Source: Hadesarchaea archaeon DG-33
Lineage (GTDB): Archaea; Hadarchaeota; Hadarchaeia; Hadarchaeales; Hadarchaeaceae
DNA length: 36,183 bases
Direction: 5' to 3'
NCBI GenBank assembly: GCA_001515185.1
Contig: LQHI01000062.1
Coordinates: 1 to 36,183, forward strand
Numbering within the stretch: the first letter of the stretch is position 1; each line of letters starts with the position of its first letter. A program made the position numbers and the translations under genes. The notes under the pieces were generated by a model. That model ran no database searches. It was not told where the DNA came from and worked only from the letters and a program-made list of their open reading frames with translations. This document shows, piece by piece, positions 3,333 to 30,843 of the stretch.

Positions 3333-3632
3333 ATGGCTAAAAGATCGAAAGGTTATCGAAGCAAAAGCAGAAGAAAGCTCACCAAACATGTCCGTGAGCG
3401 CGGACTTTCGCCCGTGAGCCGAGTGATACAAGAGCTTGGGCCTGGCAAGAAGGTTGCTATCATCCTTGACCCAAGCGTCGCGAAGGGGCAACCCCACCCA
3501 CGGTACCATGGCAGGACTGGGGTTATTCAGGAACGTTGTGGACGAGCTTACGTGGTCGAAATCAAGGATGGGGGGTCCATCAAAAAGGTTATTTCCCGCC
3601 CAGAACACCTTAGAACGGTGGGGGCAAGATGA
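3333..3632 (+). CDS. rpl21e: 50S ribosomal protein L21e
   Basis: MAKRSKGYRSKSR...HPRYHGRTGVI...VVEIKDGG.KKVI.RPEHL is the typical eL21 pattern. It sits in the conserved archaeal position upstream of rpoF. Confidence 0.9.
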   Translation: MAKRSKGYRSKSRRKLTKHVRERGLSPVSRVIQELGPGKKVAIILDPSVAKGQPHPRYHGRTGVIQERCGRAYVVEIKDGGSIKKVISRPEHLRTVGAR

Positions 3633-3967
3633 TAGGAAAGGAGGTAACGGGTGAAAAACCCGTGCCATTGACTAAAGTGCTTGAAATCCTCGAAAAACAG
3701 AAAAAGCAGGGAGAGCTAGAGTACGGACAACGGCTCACCTACGATTATGCACAAAAATTTGCGAAGTTAGATGTCAAAAAAACAGAGGAACTGATCGGTG
3801 AGTTGCTCAAGCTCGAGAAGATAAGGGAACACCAAGCAATTGCACTCGTTGATCTGATGCCCGAAAGAAAAGAGGATGTGGAACTCATTTTCGCAAAAGA
3901 ACGAACGAGGCTTGAAGGAGAAGACATCAAGAAAATTTTAGAGATAATAAACAAGTACAGGAAGTAG
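3629..3967 (+). CDS. rpoF: DNA-directed RNA polymerase subunit F (Rpo4/RpoF)
   Basis: The pattern FAKL...ELI.EL...LVDLMPE...DVELIFAKE...I.KIL.IINKY matches archaeal RpoF. Its start overlaps the rpl21e stop by ATGA, and it lies in the conserved L21e-RpoF-DUF655 synteny. Confidence 0.85.
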   Translation: MIGKEVTGEKPVPLTKVLEILEKQKKQGELEYGQRLTYDYAQKFAKLDVKKTEELIGELLKLEKIREHQAIALVDLMPERKEDVELIFAKERTRLEGEDIKKILEIINKYRK

Positions 3968-3988
3968 TTCCCAGCTAATTGGAGGCAC

Positions 3989-4591
3989 GTGTTCTTGGTC
4001 GATAAGAAATATGAAGACCGGGGCATAGTAGTGGATTTCCTGCCTGATGGGAACCCGGGCGATCCTAGACCAATTCATCTGCGTGAGCCCATAGCTCAGA
4101 TTCTTGGCGACACGTTTTTCACCCTGCTTGAAATCGTCCCCATAACAGGAGTAACATTTACCCCTCACGAACGCGTTTTTATAGGCAAGGGCGGGCGAGA
4201 CAAAGTCGAACGAATCAAACGCCGCGTGGGTTACGAGGAGCTCACAGCTGCGGCAAAAGCAGAGCTGCCGGTCGCCATAGAGGGACTGATCAACGATGCC
4301 CCAGAACGATTCATAGAGTTCTTCAATCGCGCCGCGCCTCTGACCACGCGCTTCCACCAACTCGAACTCATCCCGGGGATAGGGAAGAAACTTATGTGGG
4401 CGGTCATCGAAGAGCGGAAGAAGGGCCTCTTCGCGGACTTCGAAGATTTAAATAAAAGGGTAAAGGGGTTGACCAACCCGAAAGGCCTGATTGCGAAACG
4501 GATAATCATGGAGTTAGAGGGCTCCGACAAATACCGCGTCTTCGTGCGCCCACCATCTAGAAGGGCTTCCGTCGAGGGCGAGGCACCTTAG
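3989..4591 (+). CDS. DUF655/COG1491 predicted nucleic-acid-binding protein (OB fold plus HhH)
   Basis: YEDRGIVVDFLPDGNP...PIAQILGDTFFTLLE...RFIEFFN.A.PLTTRFHQLELIPGIGKKLMW.VIEER matches the DUF655 consensus as I remember it. Conserved neighbour of rpoF in archaea. GTG start. Confidence 0.8.
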   Translation: MFLVDKKYEDRGIVVDFLPDGNPGDPRPIHLREPIAQILGDTFFTLLEIVPITGVTFTPHERVFIGKGGRDKVERIKRRVGYEELTAAAKAELPVAIEGLINDAPERFIEFFNRAAPLTTRFHQLELIPGIGKKLMWAVIEERKKGLFADFEDLNKRVKGLTNPKGLIAKRIIMELEGSDKYRVFVRPPSRRASVEGEAP

Positions 4592-5960
4592 CTATCAGGT
4601 AGCTAACGAATGCTATCACCGGAATTATCTCGAGGCGTCCGACTAGCATTTGAACTGTCATGCTTATCTTCCCTGCCAGGGGCATCGCTGCTGAAGTTAT
4701 CCCCACAGATAAGCCAACGTTCCCTTGAGCTGAGGCCGACTCAAATACCGAATTAATGGCTGGGTTGCCCACTGCCATCAGCACTATTGCACCGCTTATC
4801 AGCACGATAATGTAGAGAAATGCGTAAATGGCGGTTTCCATCATCTCCTGTTCGCTGTAAATCCTACCCGATATTTTCATCGGCACAACTGCCCGCTCGG
4901 GGAGAAAGCTTCGCTTAATCATCCAGTGGACAGCCTTAACGATAATCACGGTTCGGATGAGCTTGATCGCACTCGAGGTTGAACCATACCCGCCACCTAC
5001 AACCATGAGGATTGTGAGCAGGCCCTTCTGGGGATCCCCCCACATTGAGAGGGTGGCCGTGGAGAAGCCCGTTCCCGTCAGGGCAGAGGAAGATTGAAAT
5101 AGCGCGTCCTGTAACCCCACGCTCCACACAAGCAAAAGCGTAGCCAGCGCTATCAGCGCGAGCATCAGCCGAACCTCGATGTTTTGGAAGAGTTCCCGCC
5201 AGTGCCCTGACATGACCCTTCGGTGGATTGCGAAGCTGACTGCACCAGCCATCATTATCAAAATTGTAACTGCAAGCACCGGGGAGCCGTATTCAGCGAA
5301 ACTCGCATTACGTACGCTGAATCCGCCGGTGGCGATTCCCGTCATCGAGTGGTTAACTGCCTCAAACAGCGACATGTTGGGTGCCCCTGTGAAGTACAAC
5401 CCGACGATGCCGAGAAGCGTGAGCAACAAATATATTTTCCATAGAGAACGAGCAGTTTCCCGAATGCTTGGCTCGATACGATCGGCTCGCGCCTCAGCAA
5501 CGTACATTTTCCGAGCTGCTTTCCCCGCACCGATGAGGGCTGCTAAGAAGAGAACAATCACACCCATGCCACCCACCCACTCGGTCAGGCTACGCCAGAA
5601 AAGGATGGTGGGTGAAACTGCTTCGACATTAGAAATCATTGTTAGTCCCGTGGCCGTGAAACCAGACATGCTCTCAAAGTAAGCGTCCTCTACTAGCATG
5701 TTGTTGCCGAAGATATAGGGTATCGAGCCGAATGCCGAGAAGATGATCCAACCTAAAGCGACAAGCACCATTGCCTTGCCTAAGGTTATATCAATAGGCT
5801 GAAAACGCCGCCTAAGGAAAAACCCTAGCACGAAGACGATGACCGCTGGGGCTATGAAATATGGGAGCAAGTGGGTTTCGTTGGTTAGAAACGCCACTGG
5901 AACCGGCGCCAACATCACCGCGCCTAGGGCGATCAGAATGAACCCTATGAAATGTAGCAT
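4557..5960 (-). CDS. trkH: TrkH/KtrB-family K+ (cation) transporter membrane subunit
   Basis: Polytopic membrane protein with repeated selectivity-filter-like motifs (SGFTATGLT, TGIATGGFS, SALTGTGFSTAT, SAQGNVGLSVG). GGAGG lies 8 nt upstream of the ATG. Confidence 0.85.
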   Translation of the reverse strand: MLHFIGFILIALGAVMLAPVPVAFLTNETHLLPYFIAPAVIVFVLGFFLRRRFQPIDITLGKAMVLVALGWIIFSAFGSIPYIFGNNMLVEDAYFESMSGFTATGLTMISNVEAVSPTILFWRSLTEWVGGMGVIVLFLAALIGAGKAARKMYVAEARADRIEPSIRETARSLWKIYLLLTLLGIVGLYFTGAPNMSLFEAVNHSMTGIATGGFSVRNASFAEYGSPVLAVTILIMMAGAVSFAIHRRVMSGHWRELFQNIEVRLMLALIALATLLLVWSVGLQDALFQSSSALTGTGFSTATLSMWGDPQKGLLTILMVVGGGYGSTSSAIKLIRTVIIVKAVHWMIKRSFLPERAVVPMKISGRIYSEQEMMETAIYAFLYIIVLISGAIVLMAVGNPAINSVFESASAQGNVGLSVGITSAAMPLAGKISMTVQMLVGRLEIIPVIAFVSYLIAKVPRPRRKPF

Positions 5961-8163: not shown

Positions 8164-10497
8164 TTATGGCCGCTGTAATGCGATGATTGCCTGCCCGACA
8201 GAGATGCCACCATCACCCGGGGGCAGAAGCTCGTGTTGGACAAATCTCAACCCAGCTTTCTCGACTTCCTCGCGCACAGCTGCGGTGATTGCTCTGTTAT
8301 AGAAAACTCCACCTGACCCTCCAACGACTTCAATCCCCTTAGAGGAAGCTGCGTCGATAGCGACTGAAGCCAACCCCTGAGCGATAGCTCGTTGAGCCGC
8401 AGCCGCGATGTGTCTGCGGGAAACTCGTGCTCGAAGGGCATCGAGTACGTCCACAAGCAACCGAGATGTGTTGACGACCATCATCCCGTCGACCTTTTCG
8501 ATCACGGGTTCTATCCTTGCTTCCTCTGTGTCTCCCTTGTTCGCGGCCGCCTCGAGTTTGATCGCTGGCTCGCCCTCGTATGTCCGTTCGTCGCAAATTC
8601 CGAGCAGGCAGGCGATGGCATCGAGCACCCTACCGCAACTGCTCGTTTGGAACACGTTCAAATCGCGCTCGAGTTGGCGAATGACGATATCTACCTCTCG
8701 CTTCCCGCGTCTGAAGCTACTCGCGCAGAACTCGTCCAGAACCCGCTCAAGCGCCTCACGCCCGAGCTGCTGCCAGAGGATGCCTGCAACCATGCGTGCT
8801 GGAAATATCGCCGCCAAGTCACCCCCCGGCATACGCTGACTCATTAGCCCGCCCACACGTTTGAACGAACTCAAATCGGCCAACATGACTTCGCCACCCC
8901 ATATCGTGCCATCTGGACCATATCCAACACCATCTGCGGCGATGCCGACGAACTCGCTTAGACCACATTCTGCCATCAGGGTTACAAGGTGAGCGTGATG
9001 ATGTTGGACAGAAAAGGTTCTCGCTCCGAGCTTCCTTGCCATCCGCGGTGCAATCCTTGTCGTTGCATAGTTGGGGTGTAAATCGTGGACAACTATGTCA
9101 ACTGAGTCCAAGTTTAACAAGCGCATAAGCCTCTCAACAGCTGATTGCATATATTTGAGGGTTTCCACTTTTGTGGTGTCGCCTATATGTTGACTGGGGA
9201 AGCACCGGTCGCCCGTCAGAACCGAGCAAGTCACATTGAGCTCCGCTCCCACTGCGAGCACTTTTTTATCACTCGTGAAAGTGAGCTTCACGGGCTCCGG
9301 CACGTAACCTCGCGAACGCCTCAAGAATGCTGGCTTCCCATCGACCTCCTTGATCACCGAATCATCACATCGGTTGACGATTAGCCGATCATGAAGTAGG
9401 AAGTAATCGACGCCCCCACGCAGCTTCCTGAAGGCTTCGGTATTATCTATTATCATCGGCAACCCAGCGACATTTGCGCTCGTCATGACGTAGGCCGGGT
9501 CCTTGCCGTAGCTCAGAATGAGGTGATGAATTCCCGAGTAAGGAAGCATCACGCCTACCGAGTCCAAGCCGGGTGCCACGAACTCTGAAAGCATGTAGTC
9601 GTTAGAGCGTTGGAGCACAACTATCGGCCGCCGAAAGGATGTCAGCGACTCAACTTCGGCTTTACCGACCTCTGCAAAAGTTCGGATTGTCCTAATATCT
9701 CTGGACATTACCGCAAATGGTTGCTGAAAGCGGTTGAATGCCCTCCGCATGCGTGTGAGTACCCCATCCTCGGTCGTTTTCGATGCTATGTGAATTCCCC
9801 CTAATCCCTTGATGGCGACCACGCTGCCCCCATCGAGCAGACGCGCTACCTCACGCAGCGGTTCGGACACATCAATGGGATTACCTTCTGCATCGTAGAG
9901 CTTCATCCGGGGGCCGCAGATAGAACAACACGTTGGTTCTGCATGGTATCGTCGGTCGGGTGGGTCTTGATACTCACGAAGGCAATCGGTGCAGAGGGGG
10001 AAAGCCTTCATTGAAGTTCGGGGGCGGTCGTAGGGAAGCTTCTCGATTATAGTGAAGCGAGGACCACAGTTGACGCAGGTGATGAAAGGATAATTATAGC
10101 GCCGGTCGCTTGGGTCGAGCATCTCGTGTAAGCAACCGTCGCAGAGCGCGAGGTCGGGTGGCACTACCGAAGGAAGCCCCAAGCCGGTCGTTTCACTCGG
10201 CACTACCCTAAAAATAGCGAATTCGTTGGTTGGATTCTTCCACGCAACTCGGATGTCATCAATTCGCGCGAGCGGCGGTTGTTCGGGACACAGCGAGTTG
10301 ACAAATTTTTCGATTGCTCTTTTATCACCCTCGACTACCACCTGCACTCCCGCGTCGCCCATGTTTCGGGCGAAGCCGGTGAGCCCGTGGTGAGCAGCAA
10401 GTCGATAGATGAACGGTCTGAATCCTACACCCTGCACTAGGCCAGTAACTGCTATTTCAGCACGGGCGCGCAAATCCCCACCCAATTTTAAACACAT
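8164..10497 (-). CDS. hypF: [NiFe]-hydrogenase maturation carbamoyltransferase HypF
   Basis: Has an acylphosphatase domain (VTGLVQGVGFRPFIYRLA), two CxxC-x18-CxxC zinc-finger pairs (CDGC...CVNCGPRF; CTDC...CSICGPR), and YrdC-like and Kae1-like domains. 777 aa. Confidence 0.95.
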   Translation of the reverse strand: MCLKLGGDLRARAEIAVTGLVQGVGFRPFIYRLAAHHGLTGFARNMGDAGVQVVVEGDKRAIEKFVNSLCPEQPPLARIDDIRVAWKNPTNEFAIFRVVPSETTGLGLPSVVPPDLALCDGCLHEMLDPSDRRYNYPFITCVNCGPRFTIIEKLPYDRPRTSMKAFPLCTDCLREYQDPPDRRYHAEPTCCSICGPRMKLYDAEGNPIDVSEPLREVARLLDGGSVVAIKGLGGIHIASKTTEDGVLTRMRRAFNRFQQPFAVMSRDIRTIRTFAEVGKAEVESLTSFRRPIVVLQRSNDYMLSEFVAPGLDSVGVMLPYSGIHHLILSYGKDPAYVMTSANVAGLPMIIDNTEAFRKLRGGVDYFLLHDRLIVNRCDDSVIKEVDGKPAFLRRSRGYVPEPVKLTFTSDKKVLAVGAELNVTCSVLTGDRCFPSQHIGDTTKVETLKYMQSAVERLMRLLNLDSVDIVVHDLHPNYATTRIAPRMARKLGARTFSVQHHHAHLVTLMAECGLSEFVGIAADGVGYGPDGTIWGGEVMLADLSSFKRVGGLMSQRMPGGDLAAIFPARMVAGILWQQLGREALERVLDEFCASSFRRGKREVDIVIRQLERDLNVFQTSSCGRVLDAIACLLGICDERTYEGEPAIKLEAAANKGDTEEARIEPVIEKVDGMMVVNTSRLLVDVLDALRARVSRRHIAAAAQRAIAQGLASVAIDAASSKGIEVVGGSGGVFYNRAITAAVREEVEKAGLRFVQHELLPPGDGGISVGQAIIALQRP

Positions 10498-10521
10498 CAG
10501 GCCTCAGTTTTAAAAACTCGC

Positions 10522-12489
10522 CTAACTGATGCCCAGCCTCTTCCACTCTTCATCTACCGTCCGCTGGATTCCCGCGATTTCCTCATCAGTGAGATGCCTA
10601 AATCTCCTCTGCATTTTCAAGTAATCTGCAACCGGCCTTCGCTTGGGTGGCTTAAAAGTGAGCTTAAACACGCCATTCTCGATCTCATAGAGATTCCACA
10701 TTCCTGTCAACACCGCAAGCTTGGCGATCTCGATCGTCTTGCTGGAATCAATCCTCCATCCTGGACCACACGGGCAATGGACGTGAATATAGGTTGGTCC
10801 TTCAATCGAGGCCGCTTTCTTTACTTTTTTGATGTAATCGAGTGGGTAGCCAACTGAAGCAGTCGCAACGTAAGGAGCACGATGGGCCGCGATTATTGCT
10901 GGCATATCTTTTTTCGGGAGATCCTCGCCTCGCTTCACCTTGCCTACGGGTGTTGTAGTTGTCCATGCGCTGTAGGGCGTTGCTCCACTTCGCTGAATCC
11001 CTGTATTGTGAACCACGATCCCGTCAGCGATAAAGTTGTGTTCACCTTCAACCCTCAAATCCAAAGTGGGTTCTTTCCCAACTAGTTTGATTTTTTCTAT
11101 TTTTTCCATCTCGAAATGTCCATTTTCTATCAAGAAGTTTTGATACTTGTACTGAGATGGATATTTCTTTACATTCCACTTCTTCCTTTTGCTGAAACAT
11201 ATGTACCCAAACGCCGTATCTTTTAGCAATCTTCTGTGCACACATTTTCTACCTTTTTTCCTTTCCTGCCAATGGATCTTCCCCACTCTGTATCCCATGG
11301 TTTGCAAAAGTAATCTCAAACGTTGAAGTAACTCATGGCTTGCAGAGACGTATCTAAAGCTGTTGCCGTTTTTATAACCATCCGAAAGCATGAGCCCTTC
11401 AATGAACGCCTCTTTTTCTTCTTTTGAGAGGGTAAAGATCCAAGGTGGTATTGTTTTATTTTTAGCTCCCGAACCAAAGCCTAAAAAGTGGATAAATCTC
11501 GCAAGATTAACCGAGTTCATATAAATGTACATATCATTGGTTCTCACTCCGTTACCAAAAAGAACATGTTGAAGTTTAACCAAACTTCTCCTTTCATTCG
11601 ATCCTTTAGGCAAGGCAAAGCCGACCTCGCCTCTCCCGGGCCTTACCCATCCATCTCCGACCCATATGCCAAGATATTTCATGAAAGCTGGAGATGAATG
11701 CTTTGGTAAATTAACTTCGTTTAGATGTGTTACTTTGCCTCCCTTTTGTATGGGATTGAATCTAAATTTGAAAGATTTTCCACCATTTAGATTTTTCAGT
11801 ACTACTATCCTATCTCTGACCTTGAGTTCACATAGAGTTTTCCAAACGAGTTTGTTTTTCCTCCCTCTACCGTTCCTTTTCAACACAAGGAAAGGATGGT
11901 TAGGCGTGGCACTTATGGTATGATGCAAGGTTTCAATTTCAAATACTTCCCGTGCTCCGTTGTCGAATATGCCTATGCATCTTTTCAAAACTGGTTGATG
12001 GGTTTTCAAGTCGAATGTATATATCTCGTCACCTTCTTTTACTTCTGTTATTTTCTTGAGACCATCTTTTGTCATTATGAGTGAAGAGGTGCTCAAACAA
12101 TTCATGTAAGCCTCGTTGTCAGTACAAATGTATAGCACATTGTGGTTGCGCTCGACCATCCCAGAAAGAGCTTGAAGCCCGATGTCTACCGTGCCTCCAT
12201 CGCCGCCTATCGCCACGACCTTGATACCACGTTTACCCAAGCTTTTCAAACCAGCTTCAACTCCAGAAGCGACTGCAGCGGCGTTCTCAAAAGCAACATG
12301 TATCCAAGGCACTCGCCAAGCGGTTTCTGGATATGGTGTGGTCACAACCTCCATGCAACCAGTTGGGGCGCAAACGATAGTGTTTTTACCAAGAGCTTTT
12401 AGTGCGTACCTCACCGCAAGGATGCTGCCACATCCTGGGCATGCGCGGTGTCCAGGCGCAAGCAATTCTTCTTCTGAAAATTGTTTCAT
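10522..12489 (-). CDS. porB: 2-oxoacid (pyruvate-type):ferredoxin oxidoreductase beta (TPP-binding) subunit, interrupted by an in-frame intein
   Basis: The exteins (130 + 160 aa) read GHRACPGCG...GGDGGTVDIGLQAL...YICTDNEAYMN | TGIQRSGATPY..., a contiguous PorB TPP motif once residues 131-495 are removed. The start overlaps the porA stop by ATGA. Confidence 0.9.
   Translation of the reverse strand: MKQFSEEELLAPGHRACPGCGSILAVRYALKALGKNTIVCAPTGCMEVVTTPYPETAWRVPWIHVAFENAAAVASGVEAGLKSLGKRGIKVVAIGGDGGTVDIGLQALSGMVERNHNVLYICTDNEAYMNCLSTSSLIMTKDGLKKITEVKEGDEIYTFDLKTHQPVLKRCIGIFDNGAREVFEIETLHHTISATPNHPFLVLKRNGRGRKNKLVWKTLCELKVRDRIVVLKNLNGGKSFKFRFNPIQKGGKVTHLNEVNLPKHSSPAFMKYLGIWVGDGWVRPGRGEVGFALPKGSNERRSLVKLQHVLFGNGVRTNDMYIYMNSVNLARFIHFLGFGSGAKNKTIPPWIFTLSKEEKEAFIEGLMLSDGYKNGNSFRYVSASHELLQRLRLLLQTMGYRVGKIHWQERKKGRKCVHRRLLKDTAFGYICFSKRKKWNVKKYPSQYKYQNFLIENGHFEMEKIEKIKLVGKEPTLDLRVEGEHNFIADGIVVHNTGIQRSGATPYSAWTTTTPVGKVKRGEDLPKKDMPAIIAAHRAPYVATASVGYPLDYIKKVKKAASIEGPTYIHVHCPCGPGWRIDSSKTIEIAKLAVLTGMWNLYEIENGVFKLTFKPPKRRPVADYLKMQRRFRHLTDEEIAGIQRTVDEEWKRLGIS
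11005..12099 (-). mobile_element. Class-1 intein (365 aa) with a LAGLIDADG homing-endonuclease domain, inserted in porB
   Basis: Block A is CLSTSSLIMTKDG (Cys1 codon at 12097-12099). Block B is ATPNHPF (TxxH). The LAGLIDADG motifs are YLGIWVGDGWV and FIEGLMLSDGY. Blocks F/G are LDLRVEGEHNFIADGIVVHN, followed by the +1 Thr (codon 11002-11004). Spot GC counts are about 30-33% inside and about 50-53% in the exteins. Confidence 0.88.
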
Positions 12490-13670
12490 GGTTTTAACCC
12501 CACCATAGTTTCTCTCAATCCTAGCCAGCGGACAGTTTTTTTGACTTCACCGATTTTTGCTGCTTCCATCGCTGCTTTGGTCGCTTCCCTAATTTGAAGT
12601 GATGAAACATCACGTCCCCCAAGACCACAGATGAAATTCAACAGAAGCGGAGACTTTCTAGAATTTACAAACGTCCCAGAAAGGTCCGAAAAAAGTGCTC
12701 CAGTGGAACCGGGCGAGAAATCTTTTTCGAGCACAGCTATGGCCTTGGCATGGGCAAGCGAGTCCACCAACTCTTTCTCTGGAAAAGGCCTGAATGCTCG
12801 CACCTTCACGAGTCCAACTCGCTCATCGTGGCCGCGGTACTCATCAATCACCTCTTTAACGCTGCCGCTCAACGAACCCATTGTGAGCAAAATTACGTCG
12901 GCATCATCACTTCGATAACACTCTATGAGGTCACTTTTCCTTCCGAATTGTCTACCGAATGCTTGTCCAACTTCAATTATTTTTTCCTTCGATTTGAGTA
13001 CAGCTTCTTGCAACATATATCTGAATTCCTCATAGTACTCTGGTACCCCAACTGCACCCATCGTGATTGGCTTCTCTGGATCGAGGAGATAAGGATACTT
13101 GTAGGGGGGCAGGAATTTATCGACTTCAGCCTGCTCAGGAATCTCCACTGGCTCGGCCGTGTGTGAGAGGATATATCCATCGAAACAGACCATCACTGGA
13201 AGCAAGGACTCTTCAGCGATGCGAAATGCCTGAATCGTCGAGTCGAGAACCTCTTGATTATTCTCGCAATAAAGCTGTATCCAACCGCAATCGCGCACAG
13301 CTACTGAGTCTTGTTGGTCGCACCAAATGCTGAGAGGTGCAGAGAGCGAGCGATTTGCGTTCGCCATGACAATAGGTAGCCGCATACCGGAAGCGACGAA
13401 CAATATCTCGCTCATGAGCATTAGTCCCTGAGAGGAAGTCGCAGTGAATGTCCTCGCCCCTACAGCCGCAGAACCTAAGCAAGCACTTAGTGCACTGTGT
13501 TCTGATTCCACTTTGATGTATTCTGCGTCCAGCTCACCATCAGCCACGAATTCGGCAAGTCTCTCTACGATAATCGTCTGCGGGGTTATTGGGTAAGCTG
13601 AGATGACCTTGACGCGCGCAAGCTTTGCAGCGATGGCAGCGGCTTCGTCGCCAGTGACAAGTTGCTTCAT
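12486..13670 (-). CDS. porA: 2-oxoacid (pyruvate-type):ferredoxin oxidoreductase alpha subunit
   Basis: The 394-aa sequence GDEAAAIAAKLARVKVISAYPITPQT...ESEHSALSACLGSAAVGARTFTATSSQGL is typical of PorA/VorA. It has 4-nt overlaps with the genes on both sides. Confidence 0.9.
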   Translation of the reverse strand: MKQLVTGDEAAAIAAKLARVKVISAYPITPQTIIVERLAEFVADGELDAEYIKVESEHSALSACLGSAAVGARTFTATSSQGLMLMSEILFVASGMRLPIVMANANRSLSAPLSIWCDQQDSVAVRDCGWIQLYCENNQEVLDSTIQAFRIAEESLLPVMVCFDGYILSHTAEPVEIPEQAEVDKFLPPYKYPYLLDPEKPITMGAVGVPEYYEEFRYMLQEAVLKSKEKIIEVGQAFGRQFGRKSDLIECYRSDDADVILLTMGSLSGSVKEVIDEYRGHDERVGLVKVRAFRPFPEKELVDSLAHAKAIAVLEKDFSPGSTGALFSDLSGTFVNSRKSPLLLNFICGLGGRDVSSLQIREATKAAMEAAKIGEVKKTVRWLGLRETMVGLKP

Positions 13671-13927
13671 TTTTGTCCCTCCTCAACCATCACTATCGCT
13701 TTGACTGGGCACTCATTGGCACAGATACCACAGCCCTTACAATATCGGTAGTCAATAACGACAGGCTTGCCCTTGGTGATTGCTGGTTCAGGACAATAAA
13801 GCCAGCACAGCCCACATCCATTGCATTTTTCAGCATCGACCACTGGTTTGAGACTCCGCCAACTGCCAGTTTCATTTTGCTCACTATTCCCCGGTTTAAG
13901 GATAATCGTGCTAGGGGGCAATTTCAT
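13667..13927 (-). CDS. porD: 2-oxoacid:ferredoxin oxidoreductase delta subunit (2x[4Fe-4S] ferredoxin)
   Basis: Has two CxxCxxCxxxCP motifs ([26 protein letters not shown]) in 86 aa. Confidence 0.9.
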
Positions 13928-14466
13928 GTTATCACCTTTGTTTGTTCATACGCTGCTTTTATCGCGGCAATGTTTTTGTCCGCAAGTTTGCCGGAAAAGC
14001 GCCCTTTGGTCACATTTATGAGCGAGTCCAAGGACACGAGCTTAGTCGCCTTCGCAAAAGCTCCCAGCATAGCCGTGTTTGTTATCGGCACTCCTAGCAT
14101 CTCCTTCGCTATTGAAGTGGCATCGACAAAAGCGGTTTTAGCATGGGAAAATTGCGCATTTTTTTTAGAGTTGAGCACTATTAGTCCATCATGCTTTATG
14201 CCAGAAGCGACGCTCACAACTTCTAGCAGTGAAGGGTCTAGTACCACCACATAGTCAGGTTCGTAAATTTGCGTGCGGATACGAATTGGCCTGCTATCGA
14301 TTCGCGTGAACGCGAGCACAGGCGCCCCCCTCCTCTCGGCGCCGAAAAATGGGAGAGCTTGGCTATATTTACCTTCCGCAAAAGCCGCCTCGGCAAGCAA
14401 CCTAGCCGCGGTCACTGCTCCTTGCCCACCGCGACCATGAAATCTTATCTCTATCATGCCATTCAT
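13924..14466 (-). CDS. porG: 2-oxoacid:ferredoxin oxidoreductase gamma subunit
   Basis: [22 protein letters not shown]...FGAERRGAP is the PorG signature. It is the first gene of the gamma-delta-alpha-beta order. Confidence 0.9.
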
Positions 14467-14674
14467 GGAAATTTCACTCCGACTCTATAAGGATTTTTTT
14501 ACTATAATTTAACACTTTCGCGTAAGGGTCTGTAGGAGCTAGGGAACGCCTGAGTAAATTTCATTCATCGAGCGGTCTGCAAGCCCGAAATGGCAAGGTC
14601 GAGAGAAAGATGGAACAGCCGGCGCGAACTTTTAATCACCCAAAATGGTTATAGCTTGCAATTCTGAATAATGC

Positions 14675-14905
14675 ATGGTTGAGAAAATGGGTAAGAAATG
14701 GGGCCACTATCGTGCGGGAGGACGAAGTCAGCCAGTCTCTTGTGTCTATTGCGGGCGAATGGTGCCTAGAATAAAAGCCGTATCAGTGAGGAAGGGTTTC
14801 AGGGTTGACCCCAGAATTCCCGGTATCGATCGGAGGCGCGTTTTTACTCCCAGCTTCAAAGGTTACGCTTGCATTTCCTGCGCCAAGCACCGCGGCCTAG
14901 TTTAA
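14675..14905 (+). CDS. rps26e: 30S ribosomal protein S26e (eS26)
   Basis: GGRSQPVSCVYCGRMVPRIKAV aligns with eS26 [23 protein letters not shown]. The C-terminal [13 protein letters not shown] aligns with HYCVSCAIHSKVV. The start may be the second ATG at 14687 (MGKKWG). Confidence 0.72.
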   Translation: MVEKMGKKWGHYRAGGRSQPVSCVYCGRMVPRIKAVSVRKGFRVDPRIPGIDRRRVFTPSFKGYACISCAKHRGLV

Positions 14906-15635
14906 TTGCTTTAACTATTTCACGAATTTTTGCTACCCTATCTTTTGCGTGCTCAACGATGGTCCCGGTTACAATAATATCTGCACCGGCTTTCACGCGC
15001 TCGCCAGCCGCTTTTGGTGTTTTTATCCCGCCCCCCACGATGAGCGTCGCCTGCGTTGCCTTCCGCACCGCTCGCACCATGTTTGTCGGCACTGGTATAG
15101 GTGCCCCTGAACCAGCCTCGAGGTAGACGAACCTCATTCCCAGATATTGCGCCGTGAGCGCGTATGCCGCGGCCAGCTCAGGTTTGGCGCGAGGGAGTAG
15201 GTCTGCCTTCCCGACCCGCCCGACCGCCTGACCAGGTTCGACCAATAAATATGCCATAGGCAAGGTTTCCAACTTGAATTGCTTGACGAGCGGCGCCCCG
15301 CGCTTTTGTGCACCAGTAATAAAATAGGGGTCACGGGAGTTGAGCATGCTCATGAAAAAGATTGCATCCGCATGCCGGCTTACTCCTGCTTCGCTTGCAG
15401 GAAAAAGGATAACAGGAAGTTTTATGGCTTTTTTTATCTCCACCACAGTTCGGTCGAGGAGACTGCCACCTGCGAGAGTAGAGCCACCAACCATGATGCC
15501 GTCACTTCCCGCAAATGCAGCATCGGAAGCTATTTGCGCAGCGACTCTCGGTACCTGTTTTGCTGGGTCTATAAGCGTTAAGTGAGCCGCGCCATCTCGA
15601 GCTATGGCCCGTTTCAACCGCTCCTCTACCTTCAT
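14856..15635 (-). CDS. Geranylgeranylglyceryl phosphate synthase (GGGPS/PcrB family)
   Basis: Motifs [47 protein letters not shown] and [13 protein letters not shown] chose the start at ATG 15635 (MKVEERL), which overlaps the rpl40e stop as ATGA. The track's longer 15731 start would run through rpl40e. Confidence 0.85.
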
Positions 15636-15778
15636 CCTCGTGGCTCCCTCGATTTCGACCTCAGCCCGCCGTAGCCGCACTTCCTGCACTTGGTTGCCTT
15701 CCAAGGGTTGTGGGCGTTGCACCGCATACATATCTTCACGTTAAATAGGCGCCGCTCAGCAGCTTCAAACTTCACCAT
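15632..15778 (-). CDS. rpl40e: 50S ribosomal protein L40e
   Basis: [48 protein letters not shown] is the archaeal eL40 zinc-ribbon pattern. The start is at the internal ATG 15778, with GGAGG upstream, right after the nnrD stop at 15783. Confidence 0.85.
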
Positions 15779-15782
15779 AATA

Positions 15783-16670
15783 TCATCTCCCTCCTTCAAC
15801 CTTCCTGAAAACCTCGGGCAACTTGTCAAGCAAGTCCGATGCCACGAATTCATTACCCTTCTCCCGGAGGCAGAGGTCTCCTGCTTGTCCGCATGCCCAA
15901 GCTCCAGCGACCGTAGCCTTGAAAGGCTCTACTCCTTGCGCCAAGAAGGTGCCCACAATTCCCGCAAGTACGTCACCTGTACCTCCCACTGTCATTCCGG
16001 GGTTGCCCGTGTAATTGAGTTTCACTTCCCCAGCGGGCGAGGCGATGATATCAACCCACGCTTTCAACAGCACGGTGCAGCCTAACTCCTTTGCGGCGGC
16101 CTTGACCTGCTGGGCCCGCCCGTTGATATCAGCTGGAAGATCCACGCCCGTTAGTAATTCGAACTCACGTGCATGTGGCGTCAGGACCCAATGCATCCCT
16201 TGAGGTAAACTCCGCTCTGATGCCAGCGCCTTCAGCCCATCCGCGTCGAACAGCGCAGGCAGGTTCGGGTGCGCCTCCTTGAGCGCTCGCGAGAGTTCAA
16301 TTACGGCGTCACGCGTCTTCGCAAGCGTGCCCAACCCTGGCCCCACAACTACGGCCGTTGAGAGTTTGAATTCATTCCGCAATTCAGAAAGTGCGGTGGG
16401 CTCTAGGTCGCGGCAGGGGAGTTTGATGGTGATGAGGTCTGGCGAGAACGAATTTATCGTCCAAGCTGCTTTTTCAGGCGCAGCGATGATCGCGAGGTCA
16501 ACACCGGAACGTAACGCGGCTAGGCCAACGAGCGCTGGAGCTCCAACGTAACGCGAACCCCCTCCGACGACGAGCAACCGCCCATAGTCACCTTTGTGTG
16601 CTCCCCGCCTTCGTTTCGGTAAAACTGCCGACACATCCTTTTTTCCAACACGCATTTTAGGATTTACCAC
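15783..16670 (-). CDS. nnrD: ADP-dependent NAD(P)H-hydrate dehydratase (YjeF C-terminal/carbohydrate-kinase family)
   Basis: [35 protein letters not shown] ... [12 protein letters not shown] are the family signatures. Confidence 0.85.
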
Positions 16671-16702
16671 AGGTGCACCTCTGAAGGAAGAAGCGCTGCT
16701 GG

Positions 16703-16712
16703 ATATAAAAAC
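16703..16712 (-). promoter_or_regulatory. TATA-like box (TTTTTATATC on the minus strand) for the nnrD-rpl40e-GGGPS transcription unit
   Basis: Centred about 35 nt upstream of the ATG at 16670, in a divergent intergenic region. Confidence 0.35.
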
Positions 16713-16744
16713 TTAGTTAGCTTGCCATGTTGAGCTGCCGCAAT

Positions 16745-16758
16745 TATTTAAATATATA
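16745..16758 (+). promoter_or_regulatory. TATA-like box (TATTTAAATATATA) for the lysA-lysC-dapA-dapB unit
   Basis: Strong A/T box about 45-50 nt upstream of the ATG at 16802, in the same divergent spacer. Confidence 0.4.
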
Positions 16759-16801
16759 CCATTTGAGTAAACCTATGAAGTGAGAGTTTGCCAAAACAAA
16801 C

Positions 16802-18160
16802 ATGGACGAAAAATCTTCAGGGAACCCTTCGCGAGGTCGAGAGCAAATGCTAATGCTGAAGCCACATTTCAGCACCAACCCTCAAGGACATCTTGTGATT
16901 GGGGGCGCCGATGCGGTCGAACTCGCCGAGCGATTTGGGACCCCTTTATACGTGGTCGATGAGCAACGAATGCGCGAGAATTACAGGCGCGTCTACCACG
17001 CCTTTGCCGAACGATGGCCAAGCGTATTTGTCTGCTATGCCCTCAAGGCTAACTCCAACTTGGCGATTTGCAAAATCATGCAGAGCGAGAATGCGGGTGC
17101 GGAGGTTAGCTCCGGCAATGAACTCCGAAACGCCCTGAATGTTGGCGTTCCTGGTGAGAGGGCAATCTTTAACGGCAACCACAAATCACCTCCGGAGCTC
17201 GAGTACGCGATAACCAACAATGTTCTAATAAACGTCGACAGTTTTCAAGAACTTAATGTGGTTGAAAGCATCGCCTCACGGATTGGGAAAAAGGCAAGGA
17301 TAGGGTTTAGGGTGAACCCCGACGTGGAGACACCGACTCACCCATACATAGCCACGGGACTCCGGGAGAGCAAATTTGGGTTTGATGTTGCGAGTGGGCA
17401 GGCGCTTGAGGCGTACAAACTCGCGTCAAAAATGACGAACGTCGAGGTTGTCGCCATCCATGCTCATATCGGCTCTCAAATCCTCGATGTCGGGCCCTTC
17501 GAGGAGGAGGCCGAGAAACTCATGGCTCTAGTAGTCGAGATTAAAAAAAGTTTTAATATTAACCTTCAATTCGTCGATTTCGGAGGCGGTATCGGCGTCC
17601 CCTATAAACCAGATGACCCAGAGCTCAAACCCGAGCAAGTGGCAGAACGCATAGTGACTGTGGTCAAGCGGGTCGTCGAAGAAAAGAATCTCACAAAACC
17701 GACAATTGTCTTTGAACCGGGGCGGAGCATAATCGCCGACGCAAGTGTGTTGCTGGCGCGTGTCGGCTACACCAAGGAGCGACCCGGGATGCCAACATGG
17801 GTGGCGGTCGACGCAGGGATGAACGCGCTGATTAGGCCGGCCCTCTACGGCGCCTATCACCATATTGAACTAGCGAACAAAATCCTAGAAAAAAATGAGA
17901 AACTCTTCAATGTCGCTGGCCCCCTTTGTGAGTCTGGCGATTTCTTGGGTAAGGAACGCAAGTTGCCTGCCACCGAACCCGGAGATCTGGCTGTGATTTT
18001 CGATGTTGGAGCCTACGGCTTAGCGGTGTCGAACCAGCATACCGCTCAGCCCCGCCCGGCGATGGTCTTGGTCAACCGTGGCAAGGCCGAGATCGTCCGA
18101 AAGCGGGAAAGTTATGAAGACCTGACTCGCCTCGACCAAATCCCCGGGTGGCTGAAGTGA
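16802..18160 (+). CDS. lysA: Diaminopimelate decarboxylase
   Basis: PLP fold-III decarboxylase motifs: YALKANSN (PLP Lys), HAHIGSQ, GGGIGVPY, EPGRSI, GPLCESGD. The start may be a downstream Met (MLMLKP). Confidence 0.9.
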   Translation: MDEKSSGNPSRGREQMLMLKPHFSTNPQGHLVIGGADAVELAERFGTPLYVVDEQRMRENYRRVYHAFAERWPSVFVCYALKANSNLAICKIMQSENAGAEVSSGNELRNALNVGVPGERAIFNGNHKSPPELEYAITNNVLINVDSFQELNVVESIASRIGKKARIGFRVNPDVETPTHPYIATGLRESKFGFDVASGQALEAYKLASKMTNVEVVAIHAHIGSQILDVGPFEEEAEKLMALVVEIKKSFNINLQFVDFGGGIGVPYKPDDPELKPEQVAERIVTVVKRVVEEKNLTKPTIVFEPGRSIIADASVLLARVGYTKERPGMPTWVAVDAGMNALIRPALYGAYHHIELANKILEKNEKLFNVAGPLCESGDFLGKERKLPATEPGDLAVIFDVGAYGLAVSNQHTAQPRPAMVLVNRGKAEIVRKRESYEDLTRLDQIPGWLK

Positions 18161-20267: not shown

Positions 20268-21037
20268 TTCGAGTTGCCGTCTGCGGTGCTTGCGGGCGAA
20301 TGGGCAGGCTAATCGTTCACCAAGTCGCGAAACAAGCGGACATGGAGTTAGTTGCGGCCATCGATGCCCATGGTACCCCAAGCGCAGGAGAGGACGCCGG
20401 GAAACTCGCCGGCGTGGGTGAACTCGGCGTAAAGATCGTTGGCGCAGACAAACTGGCTGAGACGCTGAAGAGATTAAACCCAGATGTCTTAGTGGACTTC
20501 ACCACAGCAGATGCCACAGTTCAGAACGTCAAAACTGCATCCCAAACGGGCGTTTCTGTGGTTGTGGGTACTACCGGGTTCACAGCCGAACAGCGGGTTG
20601 AAATGGAGGAAGCCGTGAAAAAGGGAAAAATCCGGGCAATCATCTCACCAAACATGTCGATCGGCGTGAATGTATTTTTCAAATCGGCAAAGGAAACTGC
20701 AAGGATGTTGGGCAGCGATTACGGAGTAGAGATTGTTGAAGCGCATCACGTGCACAAGCGCGACGCACCCAGCGGAACCGCGCGGAGGATTGCGCATATC
20801 ATCGCGAGGGAATTCAACTGGAGCGAAGATAAAATCAAAATTAAATCGATTAGAGAAGGCGAAATTGTCGGTGAACACACGGTGATATTTTCCACACCGG
20901 AGGAGCGGGTCGAGATCATCCATCGTGCACAGAGTCGTGAGACGTTTGCTGCCGGGGCAATGAAGGCAATCCGCTACGTCGTGGAAAAAGGCAAGCCAGG
21001 CGTTGTAGAAGACATGCAGAATGTTTTGGGTTTATAG
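20264..21037 (+). CDS. dapB: 4-hydroxy-tetrahydrodipicolinate reductase
   Basis: N-terminal Rossmann motif (VAVCGACGRMG) and the signature EAHHVHKRDAPSGTA. ATGA overlap with dapA. Confidence 0.9.
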   Translation: MIRVAVCGACGRMGRLIVHQVAKQADMELVAAIDAHGTPSAGEDAGKLAGVGELGVKIVGADKLAETLKRLNPDVLVDFTTADATVQNVKTASQTGVSVVVGTTGFTAEQRVEMEEAVKKGKIRAIISPNMSIGVNVFFKSAKETARMLGSDYGVEIVEAHHVHKRDAPSGTARRIAHIIAREFNWSEDKIKIKSIREGEIVGEHTVIFSTPEERVEIIHRAQSRETFAAGAMKAIRYVVEKGKPGVVEDMQNVLGL

Positions 21038-21070
21038 TCTATTGCGCTCATTTAGTGAAACGGGAGTACC

Positions 21071-22114
21071 TTGTCTAGCGTAATTCATTTTTGTAGGAGA
21101 GAAGAGGATTTTTATAACATAGGCGAAATCGCCATAGCTTATTCGATCAGAGACATGCTACGCCCCCGTTTGAAACCATTTACCTACACTCCGGGCGAGG
21201 TCAAAGAACTAGAAAAACCGCAACCCACCGAGTTTGTCGAGACAATCAACCGGCATGATATTTGCGTAATCGGGGGAGGAGGATTATACTCCAAATTTTT
21301 TCTCCCGATGGATGCTAAAGTTATCAAATCGATAGAAATACCGATTGTGCTCTATGGGATAGGCTACATCAGAAATCTCGGAGACAAGGAACTAACTCAT
21401 GAACAAATAGAAAGCGTTCGATTATTGAACACATGCGCCAAGCTCACCTCCGTTCGGGACGAATACACCGGTAAATTTTTGAGAGATTTAGGAGTAAGCG
21501 ACGTACACGTAACTGGTGATCCCGCAATTTTTCTCGATTCTGAAGAGACTAGCCAAGTTGTCCTAGATGATAGTAAAATAAAGATAGGTATAAACGTGGC
21601 TTGCCACTACTGGGCGCTATACCCTAAATATTTGTACACGACAATTGACGAGTACACCAAAGCTTGCGAATTTTTAATCAATCATCTAAACGCAGAAATC
21701 GTATATTTAGCACACCACCCCGATGAGCACCACGTTGTTGAGATAATGAGGAAGAAAAAATTGCCGCTCAAAGTGGTGGATACATCCCCCAACCCATACA
21801 AAATGAAATTCATTTACGGCAAACTGGATTTGGTCATTGGAATGATGATGCATTCCACAGTACTGGCGTTCGGAAGCGGAACCCCAATAGTAAATGTTGC
21901 CTACGACGCCAAAAATTACAATTTCATGGAGTTCATTGGTCAAAAAGATAAAGTAATAGATGTCAGAAACGCTAATCAGGAAAATATTAAGGAAGTCTCA
22001 TTGCGTACTTTCGATGATTCGGAAAATATCAAGAAAGATTTCAGGGCTCTAAAGCGTAAACTGTGGGCACAACAAGAAGAGTTCCTAACAAAAATTAGCA
22101 AATTGCCAACCTAA
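21071..22114 (+). CDS. Polysaccharide pyruvyl transferase family protein (CsaB/WcaK-like)
   Basis: YNIGEIAI (NxGD-like), ICVIGGGGLYS, VRDEYTGKFLRDLGV...TGDPAIFL and MMMHSTVLAFGSGTPIVNVAYDAKN match the PS_pyruv_trans pattern. TTG start. Spot GC is about 37-40%, against about 52% in dapB. Confidence 0.7.
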   Translation: MSSVIHFCRREEDFYNIGEIAIAYSIRDMLRPRLKPFTYTPGEVKELEKPQPTEFVETINRHDICVIGGGGLYSKFFLPMDAKVIKSIEIPIVLYGIGYIRNLGDKELTHEQIESVRLLNTCAKLTSVRDEYTGKFLRDLGVSDVHVTGDPAIFLDSEETSQVVLDDSKIKIGINVACHYWALYPKYLYTTIDEYTKACEFLINHLNAEIVYLAHHPDEHHVVEIMRKKKLPLKVVDTSPNPYKMKFIYGKLDLVIGMMMHSTVLAFGSGTPIVNVAYDAKNYNFMEFIGQKDKVIDVRNANQENIKEVSLRTFDDSENIKKDFRALKRKLWAQQEEFLTKISKLPT

Positions 22115-25233: not shown

Positions 25234-25959
25234 TTGAAGATGCTAAGGATAGAGAATCTAACTGTAGAAATCGCGGGAAAACGGGTGCTCGGAGGAGTTA
25301 ACCTAGAGGTACCCAAAGGGGAGATCCACGTTTTGCTCGGGCCCAACGGATCCGGGAAGACCTCGCTGATAACGTCAATTTTGGGCTTCCCGAGTTGCCA
25401 CATTCTATCTGGCAATATTCGTTTCAATGGCACTGACATCACCACCATGCCAACGGATGAGCGCGTGAAGCTAGGCATCGGGGTGGCCTTCCAAAACCCC
25501 CCGCAAATAAGAGGTGTCAAACTGGGCGATGTTTTGCGACACCTCACCAAGGGAAAAATCGATGAAGTAAAGCTGGCAGGAACTACAAATATTCCCGTGG
25601 ATTTTTTCGGCAGAGATTTGAATTTGGGATTCTCCGGAGGCGAGCTCAAGCGGACGGAGATTCTACAGTTGCTCGCCCAACGACCAGATTTTGCGATATT
25701 CGATGAGCCCGACTCAGGAGTAGATGTTGAGAATCTAGAGGTCATAGGCAAGGCAATCAACGAATTCCTCAAGAACCGATCTGGCCTGTTGATAACCCAC
25801 CTCGGCCACATCCTGCGCTACTTAAAAGTGGACAAAGCCCATGTGATGTTTTATGGAACGATCGCCTGCTCTGGAAAGCCGACCAATATTATCAACCGAA
25901 TCATGAAAAAAGGCTACAAGTGGTGTGAGCGATGCCCAAAGGTAAAAAAACTACGCTGA
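25234..25959 (+). CDS. sufC: Fe-S cluster assembly ATPase SufC
   Basis: Walker A GPNGSGKTSL, ABC signature FSGGELKRTEILQLL, Walker B FDEPDSGVDV and H-loop ITH. Followed by sufB. The start may be ATG 25240. Confidence 0.9.
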   Translation: MKMLRIENLTVEIAGKRVLGGVNLEVPKGEIHVLLGPNGSGKTSLITSILGFPSCHILSGNIRFNGTDITTMPTDERVKLGIGVAFQNPPQIRGVKLGDVLRHLTKGKIDEVKLAGTTNIPVDFFGRDLNLGFSGGELKRTEILQLLAQRPDFAIFDEPDSGVDVENLEVIGKAINEFLKNRSGLLITHLGHILRYLKVDKAHVMFYGTIACSGKPTNIINRIMKKGYKWCERCPKVKKLR

Positions 25960-30745: not shown

Positions 30746-30843
30746 ACGGCCACCTCAACCTTTTAGTCAGGACGACTTTTAAACCATGATGGTAATAAGT
30801 AAAAAGATTAAATCAAGGTGGAATTCACTACTAGCGTGATTTC

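Follow-up and report, generated by a model that had tools for sequence, protein, structure and literature searches.

A LAGLIDADG intein, probably still mobile, in the pyruvate:ferredoxin oxidoreductase beta subunit of a Hadesarchaeon

Contig LQHI01000062.1 of Hadesarchaea archaeon DG-33 (assembly GCA_001515185.1; positions 1 to 36,183, the whole of which is here called the window) carries a porB gene that is interrupted in frame by a segment encoding 365 amino acids (aa). We consider it very likely, judging from conserved residues, a predicted structure and analogy with characterised inteins, that this insert is a canonical class-1 intein with a HINT splicing domain and a nested LAGLIDADG homing endonuclease (HE), that it is spliced out of the PorB precursor, and that it belongs to a single family that is mobile now or was so recently. 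That a class-1 LAGLIDADG intein occupies 11005-12099 and splits the motif with which PorB binds thiamine pyrophosphate (TPP) and Mg had been proposed in an earlier note made from the letters alone, and is borne out here by profiles, conserved blocks and a model match. The parts of the gene, all on the minus strand, are as follows (ORF, open reading frame).

10522..12489, minus strand: porB precursor ORF, 655 aa plus stop (N-extein, intein and C-extein); from the ORF list and matches to NF008819, TPP_enzyme_C, Intein_splicing and LAGLIDADG_3
12100..12489, minus strand: N-extein, aa 1-130, last residue N130; holds C17, C20, C45 and the GDG...N Mg/TPP motif (D97, N125)
11005..12099, minus strand: putative intein, aa 131-495, 365 aa, 39.2% G+C (GC); from profile matches, alignment and the AlphaFold2 model
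11791..12099, minus strand: N-terminal splicing (HINT) region, aa 131-233; TIGR01445 match, retained in a mini-intein allele
12061-12099, minus strand: block A with Cys1 (CLSTSS); C131 invariant in 121/121 sequences
within 11890-11910, minus strand: block B, TPNH, aa 195-198; T195 and H198 invariant in 121/121 sequences
11122..11790, minus strand: nested LAGLIDADG (DOD) homing endonuclease domain, aa 234-456; Pfam LAGLIDADG_3, match to PI-PkoII 2cw7, block missing from the mini-intein allele P0089
11647-11676, minus strand: LAGLIDADG motif 1, YLGIWVGDGW (LGIWVGDG = aa 273-280); D279 in 117/120
11446-11469, minus strand: conserved GAKNKTIP of the endonuclease domain; K345 in 120/120
11374-11406, minus strand: LAGLIDADG motif 2, FIEGLMLSDGY (IEGLMLSDG = aa 363-371); D370 in 120/120
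11005..11121, minus strand: C-terminal splicing region, aa 457-495; TIGR01443 match
11032-11064, minus strand: block F, LDLRVEGEHNF; D477 and H484 invariant
11005-11031, minus strand: block G, IADGIVVHN; H494 and N495 invariant
10525..11004, minus strand: C-extein, aa 496-655, beginning with the +1 Thr496 (TGIQRSG) and including C574; T496, G497, Q499 and R500 invariant

The insert was matched by Pfam Intein_splicing at 59-61 bits (cut-off 35.8) and by LAGLIDADG_3 at 31-33 bits (cut-off 22.5), and the models for the N-terminal and C-terminal regions of inteins scored 30-32 bits (TIGR01445, cut-off 24.5) and 25-29 bits (TIGR01443, cut-off 15.6), respectively. The NCBIfam equivalog for PorB, NF008819, matched the host protein at 456.5 bits (cut-off 405) in two stretches, the C-terminal one of which begins at residue 493, corresponding to profile position 131; the VorB-type model NF008818 scored 379, under its own cut-off. 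From this model match and the porGDAB context, we take the host protein to be PorB, the beta subunit of the four-subunit pyruvate:ferredoxin oxidoreductase (POR, also PFOR).

To count conserved residues, the window protein was aligned with its 120 best database homologues. It can be seen that the insert lies at the identical point in all 121 sequences, and that N130, C131, T195, N197, H198, D477, H484, H494, N495 and T496 are invariant among them. Thr496, the +1 residue, doubles as the Thr of the host motif NTGIQ. The catalytic Asp residues of the two LAGLIDADG motifs are kept in 117 (D279) and 120 (D370) of the 120 full-length copies, K345 is kept in all 120, and the window copy retains all three. 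Within the intein C171 is invariant and C431 nearly so, and the extein residue C122 (position -9) is found in 119 of the 121 sequences; in the PorB exteins C17, C20, C45 and C574 are conserved and G96-D97-G98 and N125 are present, all of them in line with their counterparts in 1b0p and 9bt4_C. The junctions read ...YICTDNEAYMN/CLSTSS... and ...GIVVHN/TGIQRSGATPY, the slash marking the boundary, and deletion of residues 131-495 leaves 290 aa in which DNEAYMNTGIQ is uninterrupted. The strings quoted in the earlier note (CLSTSS, TPNH, LGIWVGDG, IEGLMLSDG and VVHN followed by Thr) are thus all present, and the product it predicted on excision is 97% identical to an existing intein-free protein, P0121.

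As far as sequence and model can be read, every mark of a class-1 intein that we could look for appears to be there, namely Cys1, TxxH, blocks F and G, the +1 Thr and the HINT fold. The endonuclease likewise has the features of the LAGLIDADG (DOD) class, with two Asp-ending motifs, a position nested between blocks B and F, and an apparent dispensability for the splicing scaffold. Two other identities for the insert were rejected. BIL (bacterial intein-like) domains sit in variable host proteins and usually lack both a +1 nucleophile and a nested endonuclease, whereas here the insertion point is a highly conserved one, the +1 Thr never varies and the insert does contain an endonuclease; BIL structures gave weak, partial fold matches to the insert (6y75 and 2lwy, target-normalised template modelling (TM) score ~0.55). 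Nor is the insert a conserved domain of PorB, because most orthologues lack it.

An AlphaFold2 model of the whole precursor, made with 37 aligned sequences, had a mean predicted local distance difference test (pLDDT) score of 82.4, and block means across the insert were mostly 76-94. When this model was compared with known structures using Foldseek, the two extein pieces jointly superposed on the Methanosarcina acetivorans PFOR beta subunit 9bt4_C (target-normalised TM-score 0.90) with the intein as one large gap. The insert superposed on HE-containing inteins, namely TliVMA 7qsu (target-normalised TM-score 0.73), PhoVMA 7qst, PI-PkoII 2cw7 and PI-SceI 1ef0. The Foldseek probability was 1.00 for the intein structures 7qsu, 7qst, 2cw7, 1mi8 and 4o1r, and the splicing halves taken alone resembled the Ssp and Npu DnaB mini-inteins at ~0.8.

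The spliced 290-aa sequence aligned with no gap through the junction to 9bt4_C at 372 bits, where 9bt4_C has the motif ...VDNEAYMNTGIQRS..., and to oxalate oxidoreductase 5c4i_C, and it also aligned to Desulfovibrio africanus PFOR 1b0p. A gap-free offset to 1b0p places D97, N125, A127 and N130 at Asp963, Thr991, Val993 and Asn996, the first three of which we take to be Mg2+ ligands in the D. africanus structure. By the same comparison C17, C20, C45 and C574 are presumably the ligands of the proximal [4Fe-4S] cluster. C574 (C209 after splicing) aligns with the 'YATC' cysteine of 1b0p, and the intein separates the GDG...N motif and three of these cysteines (C17, C20 and C45) from the fourth. In D. 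africanus PFOR, Asn996 lines the pocket around the methyl group of pyruvate and rotates when pyruvate binds (PMC5020499). The intein would therefore directly follow a substrate-pocket residue, N130. Because it follows the Asn996 equivalent and parts the Mg/TPP motif and three cysteines from the fourth, we infer with good reason that no active site can be built by the unspliced precursor and that only spliced PorB could build one, and it is reasonable to regard POR activity as dependent on splicing.

By analogy with characterised class-1 inteins, the 655-aa precursor would be translated first, and Cys131, helped by Thr195 and His198 of block B, would undergo an N-S acyl shift. Thr496 would then attack the thioester and Asn495 would cyclise with the assistance of His494, so that ligation of the exteins would restore the native ...DNEAYMN-TGIQRS... 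segment in a PorB of 290 aa. The endonuclease would cut intein-free porB at the conserved site encoding DNEAYMN/TGIQRS, repair of the cut allele would copy the intein in (homing), and in this way one intein family would have reached PorB/VorB-type genes in many anaerobes, archaeal as well as bacterial.

Close relatives of the window show three states at this site: empty (locus L081), full intein (the window and a metagenomic copy, L084) and mini-intein (L082/L083). A search with the spliced exteins identified the intein-free protein P0121, encoded at L081, which has 290 aa and is 97% identical to the spliced product, so that the empty homing site that the earlier note had suggested looking for does exist in a close relative. 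Dozens more intein-free PorB proteins were found at 75-89% identity, the named ones all from Hadesarchaea/Hadarchaeales, a result that by itself points to a probable Hadarchaeota origin of the window. At the DNA level the empty allele, ...TACATGAAC/ACGGGTATCCAG..., is the two flanks of the window joined exactly; its junction can also be written ...ATTTGCACTGACAACGAAGCTTACATGAAC/ACGGGTATCCAGCGAAGTGGA... and ...TACATGAAC/ACGGGTATC.... The third state is represented by P0089 (L082 10001-11296 = L083 211-1506; GCA_964433595.1, CAYSRF010000019.1), which has a 141-aa mini-intein at the same PorB site. Precisely aa 234-456, the endonuclease domain, are missing from it, with the join VLKN/EHFEMEKI, and the two halves of the splicing domain are retained. 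P0089 has exteins 92% identical to those of the window and lies in a syntenic region (porGDAB ... hypF, Rce1-like, TrkH). A degenerate form is seen further away in P0244 (607 aa, PorB/VorB-like, from a more distant, bacterial-type host), where a shorter intein, 44% identical, sits at the same site. Both catalytic Asp residues of its LAGLIDADG motifs are replaced (LGIFIASGQ and IKGMTNTNG), and its endonuclease looks decayed.

Comparison of inteins with their own hosts points to mobility. The intein of the window is closest to that of a Bathyarchaeia metagenome-assembled genome (MAG), at 74% identity with exteins at 54%, and it is 70% identical to inteins of Aerophobetes bacteria with exteins at 56%; by contrast, in the Hadarchaeota MAGs whose exteins are closest (68-70%) the inteins are just 55-58% identical to that of the window. 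Intein identity exceeded extein identity in 91% of 2,775 pairs, and for a Methanosarcinales and a Cloacimonadota copy the values were 81% and 47%, respectively. Between the window and L084, a 95%-identical copy, synonymous divergence (dS) was 0.091 in the intein and 0.276 in the exteins, and the ratio of non-synonymous to synonymous divergence (dN/dS) in the intein was 0.24. In nucleotides the exteins of the window are 92.6% identical to the empty allele and 91.6% to L084, and the inteins of the window and L084 are 96.5% identical. Identity between these two copies drops with distance from the intein, from 95.4 to 93.8 and 90.0% upstream and from 93.8 to 90.8 and 88.3% downstream, a gradient that looks like a co-conversion tract. 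The junction region showed no unusual conservation against the empty allele. Taken together these patterns are those expected of a classical homing cycle, and they speak for endonuclease activity that persists or ended only very recently; the intein is genuine and probably still mobile.

Several points weigh against this reading. The co-conversion-like gradient was read from 111 mismatches between just two sequences, dS estimates are noisy at a length of a few hundred codons, and the lower dS of the intein could come partly from composition. When P0089 was compared with the window, the splicing domain of its mini-intein had a dS of 1.29 and the exteins 0.56, which suggests a different intein lineage or faster evolution; since the mini-intein has diverged more than the exteins, at least two lineages of the intein would have taken part in the local history. 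MAG taxa follow their depositors' labels, and the host range described below may look too wide if some MAGs were mis-binned. No vector for spread between the domains was found: none of 30 pattern matches in IMG/VR viral contigs encoded a relative. Finally, both splicing and DNA cleavage are read here from conserved residues and comparative patterns.

It was also possible that the intein splices but that this copy is now immobile, its endonuclease inactive or without targets and its inheritance vertical only, and this we judge unlikely. Endonuclease activity is not readable from sequence, and the loss of the HE in P0089 and its decay in P0244 mean that inactivation does occur in the PorB intein family; in addition, the GC content of the intein tracks that of its host across loci (r = 0.91), which implies long residence in many hosts. 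However, the window copy keeps D279, D370 and K345, its dN/dS of 0.24 against L084 and a dS one third that of the exteins do not sit easily with an idle endonuclease, and an empty target allele exists in a relative with a 97%-identical extein. That the insert does not splice at all, so that porB is inactivated or tolerates a non-intein domain while the organism uses another 2-oxoacid oxidoreductase, is hardly credible. Redundancy could exist in the group, as L082 has a second, two-subunit 2-oxoacid:ferredoxin oxidoreductase (OFOR) nearby (3392-5925). In the window, however, both the ORF and the porGDAB operon around it, whose genes overlap at their stop and start codons, are intact, the exteins are under purifying selection (dN/dS 0.08-0.14), the splicing residues are invariant in 121 sequences, most orthologues have no insert, and the insert has an intein fold in the AlphaFold2 model.

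We also considered whether the intein acts as a redox or oxygen switch, in which oxidation would reversibly block splicing at Cys1, so that the oxygen-labile POR would be matured only under reducing conditions and the intein would be retained as useful rather than only selfish. The nucleophile is Cys1, further cysteines are conserved (C171, C431 and the extein C122), the hosts all come from lineages regarded as anaerobes, and the mini-intein keeps its splicing domain after loss of the HE. There is also a precedent for redox-controlled splicing, the mycobacterial DnaB intein being described as an oxidative-stress sensor (PMC6195587). Such a switch is nevertheless an attractive speculation, and we think it improbable: the intein is present or absent among near-identical exteins, so that hosts fare well without it, the conserved endonuclease residues point to selection for mobility, and the conserved cysteines are perhaps structural or coincidental. 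If there were a redox gate, it would place a central ferredoxin-reducing step under post-translational control in many uncultured anaerobes, and would explain both the persistence of the mini-intein after HE loss and the spread of the family in strict anaerobes of both domains. We conclude that the reading as a splicing and recently mobile class-1 intein is the best account of the insert.

The base composition of the intein was also compared with that of its exteins. The intein has 39.2% GC against 50.8% in the N-extein and 50.7% in the C-extein, and no other 1.1-kb stretch of the window is as low in GC (window mean 49.5%, standard deviation 3.5). In 60-nt lines the values were 33.3% at 11101 and 30.0% at 11761, with extein lines at 50% and 53%, so the figures of the earlier note reproduce; what does not hold is AT-richness as proof of recent foreign origin, which was rejected. 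At each of the 82 loci compared, AT content is higher in the intein than in its own exteins, by a mean of 9.3 points (difference -9.3, standard deviation 3.1), and the window difference of -11.6 lies within one standard deviation. Intein GC ranges from 31% to 65% with that of the host. The window intein contains more Lys, Asn and Phe and less Ala and Pro than its exteins, and low GC is a property of the family linked to this Lys/Asn/Phe-rich, Ala/Pro-poor composition, not in itself a sign of foreign origin. Because the offset is family-wide, AT-richness cannot by itself date the insertion.

At E <= 1e-5 the precursor has matches to over 1,000 proteins in the database. Of these the top 120 have 630-697 aa and carry TPP_enzyme_C and Intein_splicing, save one of 431 aa, the bearer of the mini-intein. 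Some copies have been named by the JGI pipeline 'pyruvate/2-oxoacid:ferredoxin oxidoreductase beta subunit/intein/homing endonuclease', and some NCBI/UniRef copies are labelled 'hypothetical protein' or 'DOD-type homing endonuclease...'. When one genome per GTDB species (185,579) was scanned for the junction peptides [DN]N[EQ][AG]YMNC and VHNTG[IV]QRS, at least 186 species representatives were found to encode relatives with an intein at the PorB site. Among the best 80 of the 186 loci, by the depositors' taxon labels, archaeal hosts were Hadarchaeota, Bathyarchaeia, Methanophagales/ANME-1, Methanosarcinales, Altiarchaeales, Aenigmatarchaeota, Woesearchaeota, Micrarchaeota and Nanoarchaeota, and bacterial hosts were Omnitrophota (many), Aerophobetes, Planctomycetia, Clostridia, Cloacimonadota, Patescibacteria/Parcubacteria and Vermiphilus. 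All of these lineages are generally regarded as anaerobes. The intein is 361-372 aa long in 79 of the 82 loci with both junctions located. In Candidatus Subteraquimicrobium carltonvillense (L058, DDKQ01000107.1, 6001-7872) it has 326 aa, is 70% identical to the window intein and may have an internal deletion in the endonuclease domain. In a Cloacimonadota MAG (L046, JACNFI010000238.1, 1510-3453) the extein scores as VorB-type (NF008818, 424 bits, above cut-off) rather than PorB, and the intein shares 78-81% identity with the inteins of PorB genes from Methanosarcinales and Nanoarchaeia; therefore the intein occupies a site shared by more than one paralogue, and it crosses paralogues as well as domains.

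Among 1.84 billion representative proteins the PorB intein family forms a few clusters at ~59% identity, and its next relatives beyond PorB, at 31-36% identity, are in SufB, a T4-type portal protein and a subtilase. The earlier note knew of no intein in a 2-oxoacid:ferredoxin oxidoreductase. As a statement about nature this has to be given up, the site being occupied in a family of more than 1,000 matches (120 of the 120 compared) and in at least 186 GTDB species; as a statement about the literature it stands, in that no published description of an intein in any 2-oxoacid:ferredoxin oxidoreductase was found in open-access text. The text of the survey by Novikova et al. 2016 (PMC4760082) makes no mention of pyruvate or ferredoxin, and papers on Thiomargarita and on an Anaeramoeba intein proved unrelated to a POR intein. 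The mechanism is not new, this being a canonical class-1 LAGLIDADG intein with many copies already public and some machine-annotated; the PorB intein family itself, its breadth in both domains and the homing-cycle series around the window appear to be undescribed.

The closest structural models are the archaeal and other HE-associated class-1 inteins of Thermococcus litoralis VMA (7qsu/7qss), Pyrococcus horikoshii VMA (7qst), PI-PkoII (2cw7, to which the HE part is closest in sequence among PDB entries) and PI-SceI (1ef0). Like these, the PorB intein has a HINT domain with a LAGLIDADG domain nested between blocks B and F, has Cys1, TxxH and a terminal HN, and interrupts an essential enzyme where its cofactor- or substrate-binding sequence is most conserved. 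It differs in that identity in structural alignments is 15-19%, its host is a TPP/[4Fe-4S] oxidoreductase and not an ATPase or polymerase, and its +1 residue is Thr. Outside PorB the nearest inteins are those of the archaeal and bacterial Pps1/SufB family, at 31-36% over the full 365 aa (P0243, P0257, P0258, P0267 and P0274). They too lie in a non-replicative, Fe-S-related protein, although the host gene and insertion site are different and the identity is far under the 55-95% seen within the PorB family. The window has its own SufBD-family gene (25932-27155, plus strand, 407 aa), which is free of an intein and is therefore an unoccupied potential host for the related family.

Metabolic enzymes are known to bear inteins, InBase including phosphoenolpyruvate (PEP) synthase, GF6P aminotransferase and UDP-glucose dehydrogenase of Methanocaldococcus jannaschii and GLT1 of yeast; together with tetraether lipid synthase Tes (NF045703, a model that gives a weak partial match to the PorB intein), these are precedents outside replication proteins and ATPases. 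To our knowledge, none of these metabolic enzymes is a 2-oxoacid:ferredoxin oxidoreductase. In the homing cycle that Goddard and Burt are said to have described, invasion is followed by fixation, endonuclease decay, loss and reinvasion. All four allelic states are seen at the PorB site (empty in L081, full in the window and L084, degenerate in P0244 and mini in P0089), and the incongruence between intein and host similarity is likewise found. Unlike in the model, these states are metagenomic snapshots and not a resolved population, and an empty site in them may reflect either precise loss or the absence of any earlier invasion.

In the window porB is the last gene of a porG-porD-porA-porB operon in which the stops and starts of neighbouring genes overlap, and hypF follows 24 nt downstream of porB. 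The other operon genes, from the ORF list, are:

12486-13670, minus strand: porA
13667-13927, minus strand: porD
13924-14466, minus strand: porG

The same gene order, with POR, Fer4 and POR_N/PFOR_II domains, is present in the syntenic relative L082. There, four extra genes lie between porB and hypF (11297-17406), a prenyltransferase and three without a Pfam hit, the equivalent in the window being 8164-10521; this is a local insertion or deletion adjoining the intein-bearing gene.

No other intein was found in the remaining long or low-GC ORFs of the window (the 1115-aa HdrA-like ORF, the 652-aa ORF, HypF, SRP54, NiFe hydrogenase, SufBD and others), and no tRNA genes or Rfam families were found in it. 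A second low-GC patch (20900-22100, ~40-43% against 49.5%) holds an ORF for a polysaccharide pyruvyl transferase (21071-22114, plus strand) right after dapA/dapB, which may be a laterally acquired surface-glycan gene. A cluster at 28269-36146 encodes a [NiFe]-hydrogenase and large flavoproteins:

28269-29756, minus strand: [NiFe]-hydrogenase large subunit
29753-30745, minus strand: [NiFe]-hydrogenase small subunit
30844-32802, divergent from the hydrogenase genes: HdrA-like flavoprotein/ferredoxin ORF, 652 aa
32799-36146, divergent from the hydrogenase genes: HdrA-like flavoprotein/ferredoxin ORF, 1115 aa

The 1115-aa protein has FAD/NAD-binding (Pyr_redox_2), Fer4_20 and 4Fe-4S ferredoxin (Fer4) domains, and no intein domain was detected in the low-GC stretch of its ORF (~42%, ~33750-35200).

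The PorB intein leaves the understanding of how inteins work unchanged. Its alleles, empty, full, degenerate and mini, make a natural series for the study of the homing cycle, and the 141-aa mini-intein and the endonuclease, with its predicted, conserved target site, are possible tools for protein engineering and genome targeting. The family also records recent exchange of DNA between anaerobic archaea and bacteria, as in the pair with 81% intein and 47% extein identity. POR may go unnoticed in genomes of this kind, since automated annotation often yields 'hypothetical protein' or 'DOD-type homing endonuclease' for these genes. If maturation of POR needs splicing, pyruvate oxidation or synthesis would have a post-translational prerequisite that genome-based metabolic reconstructions ignore, and this would apply to these Hadarchaeota and to many Omnitrophota, Aerophobetes, ANME-1, DPANN and Patescibacteria MAGs.

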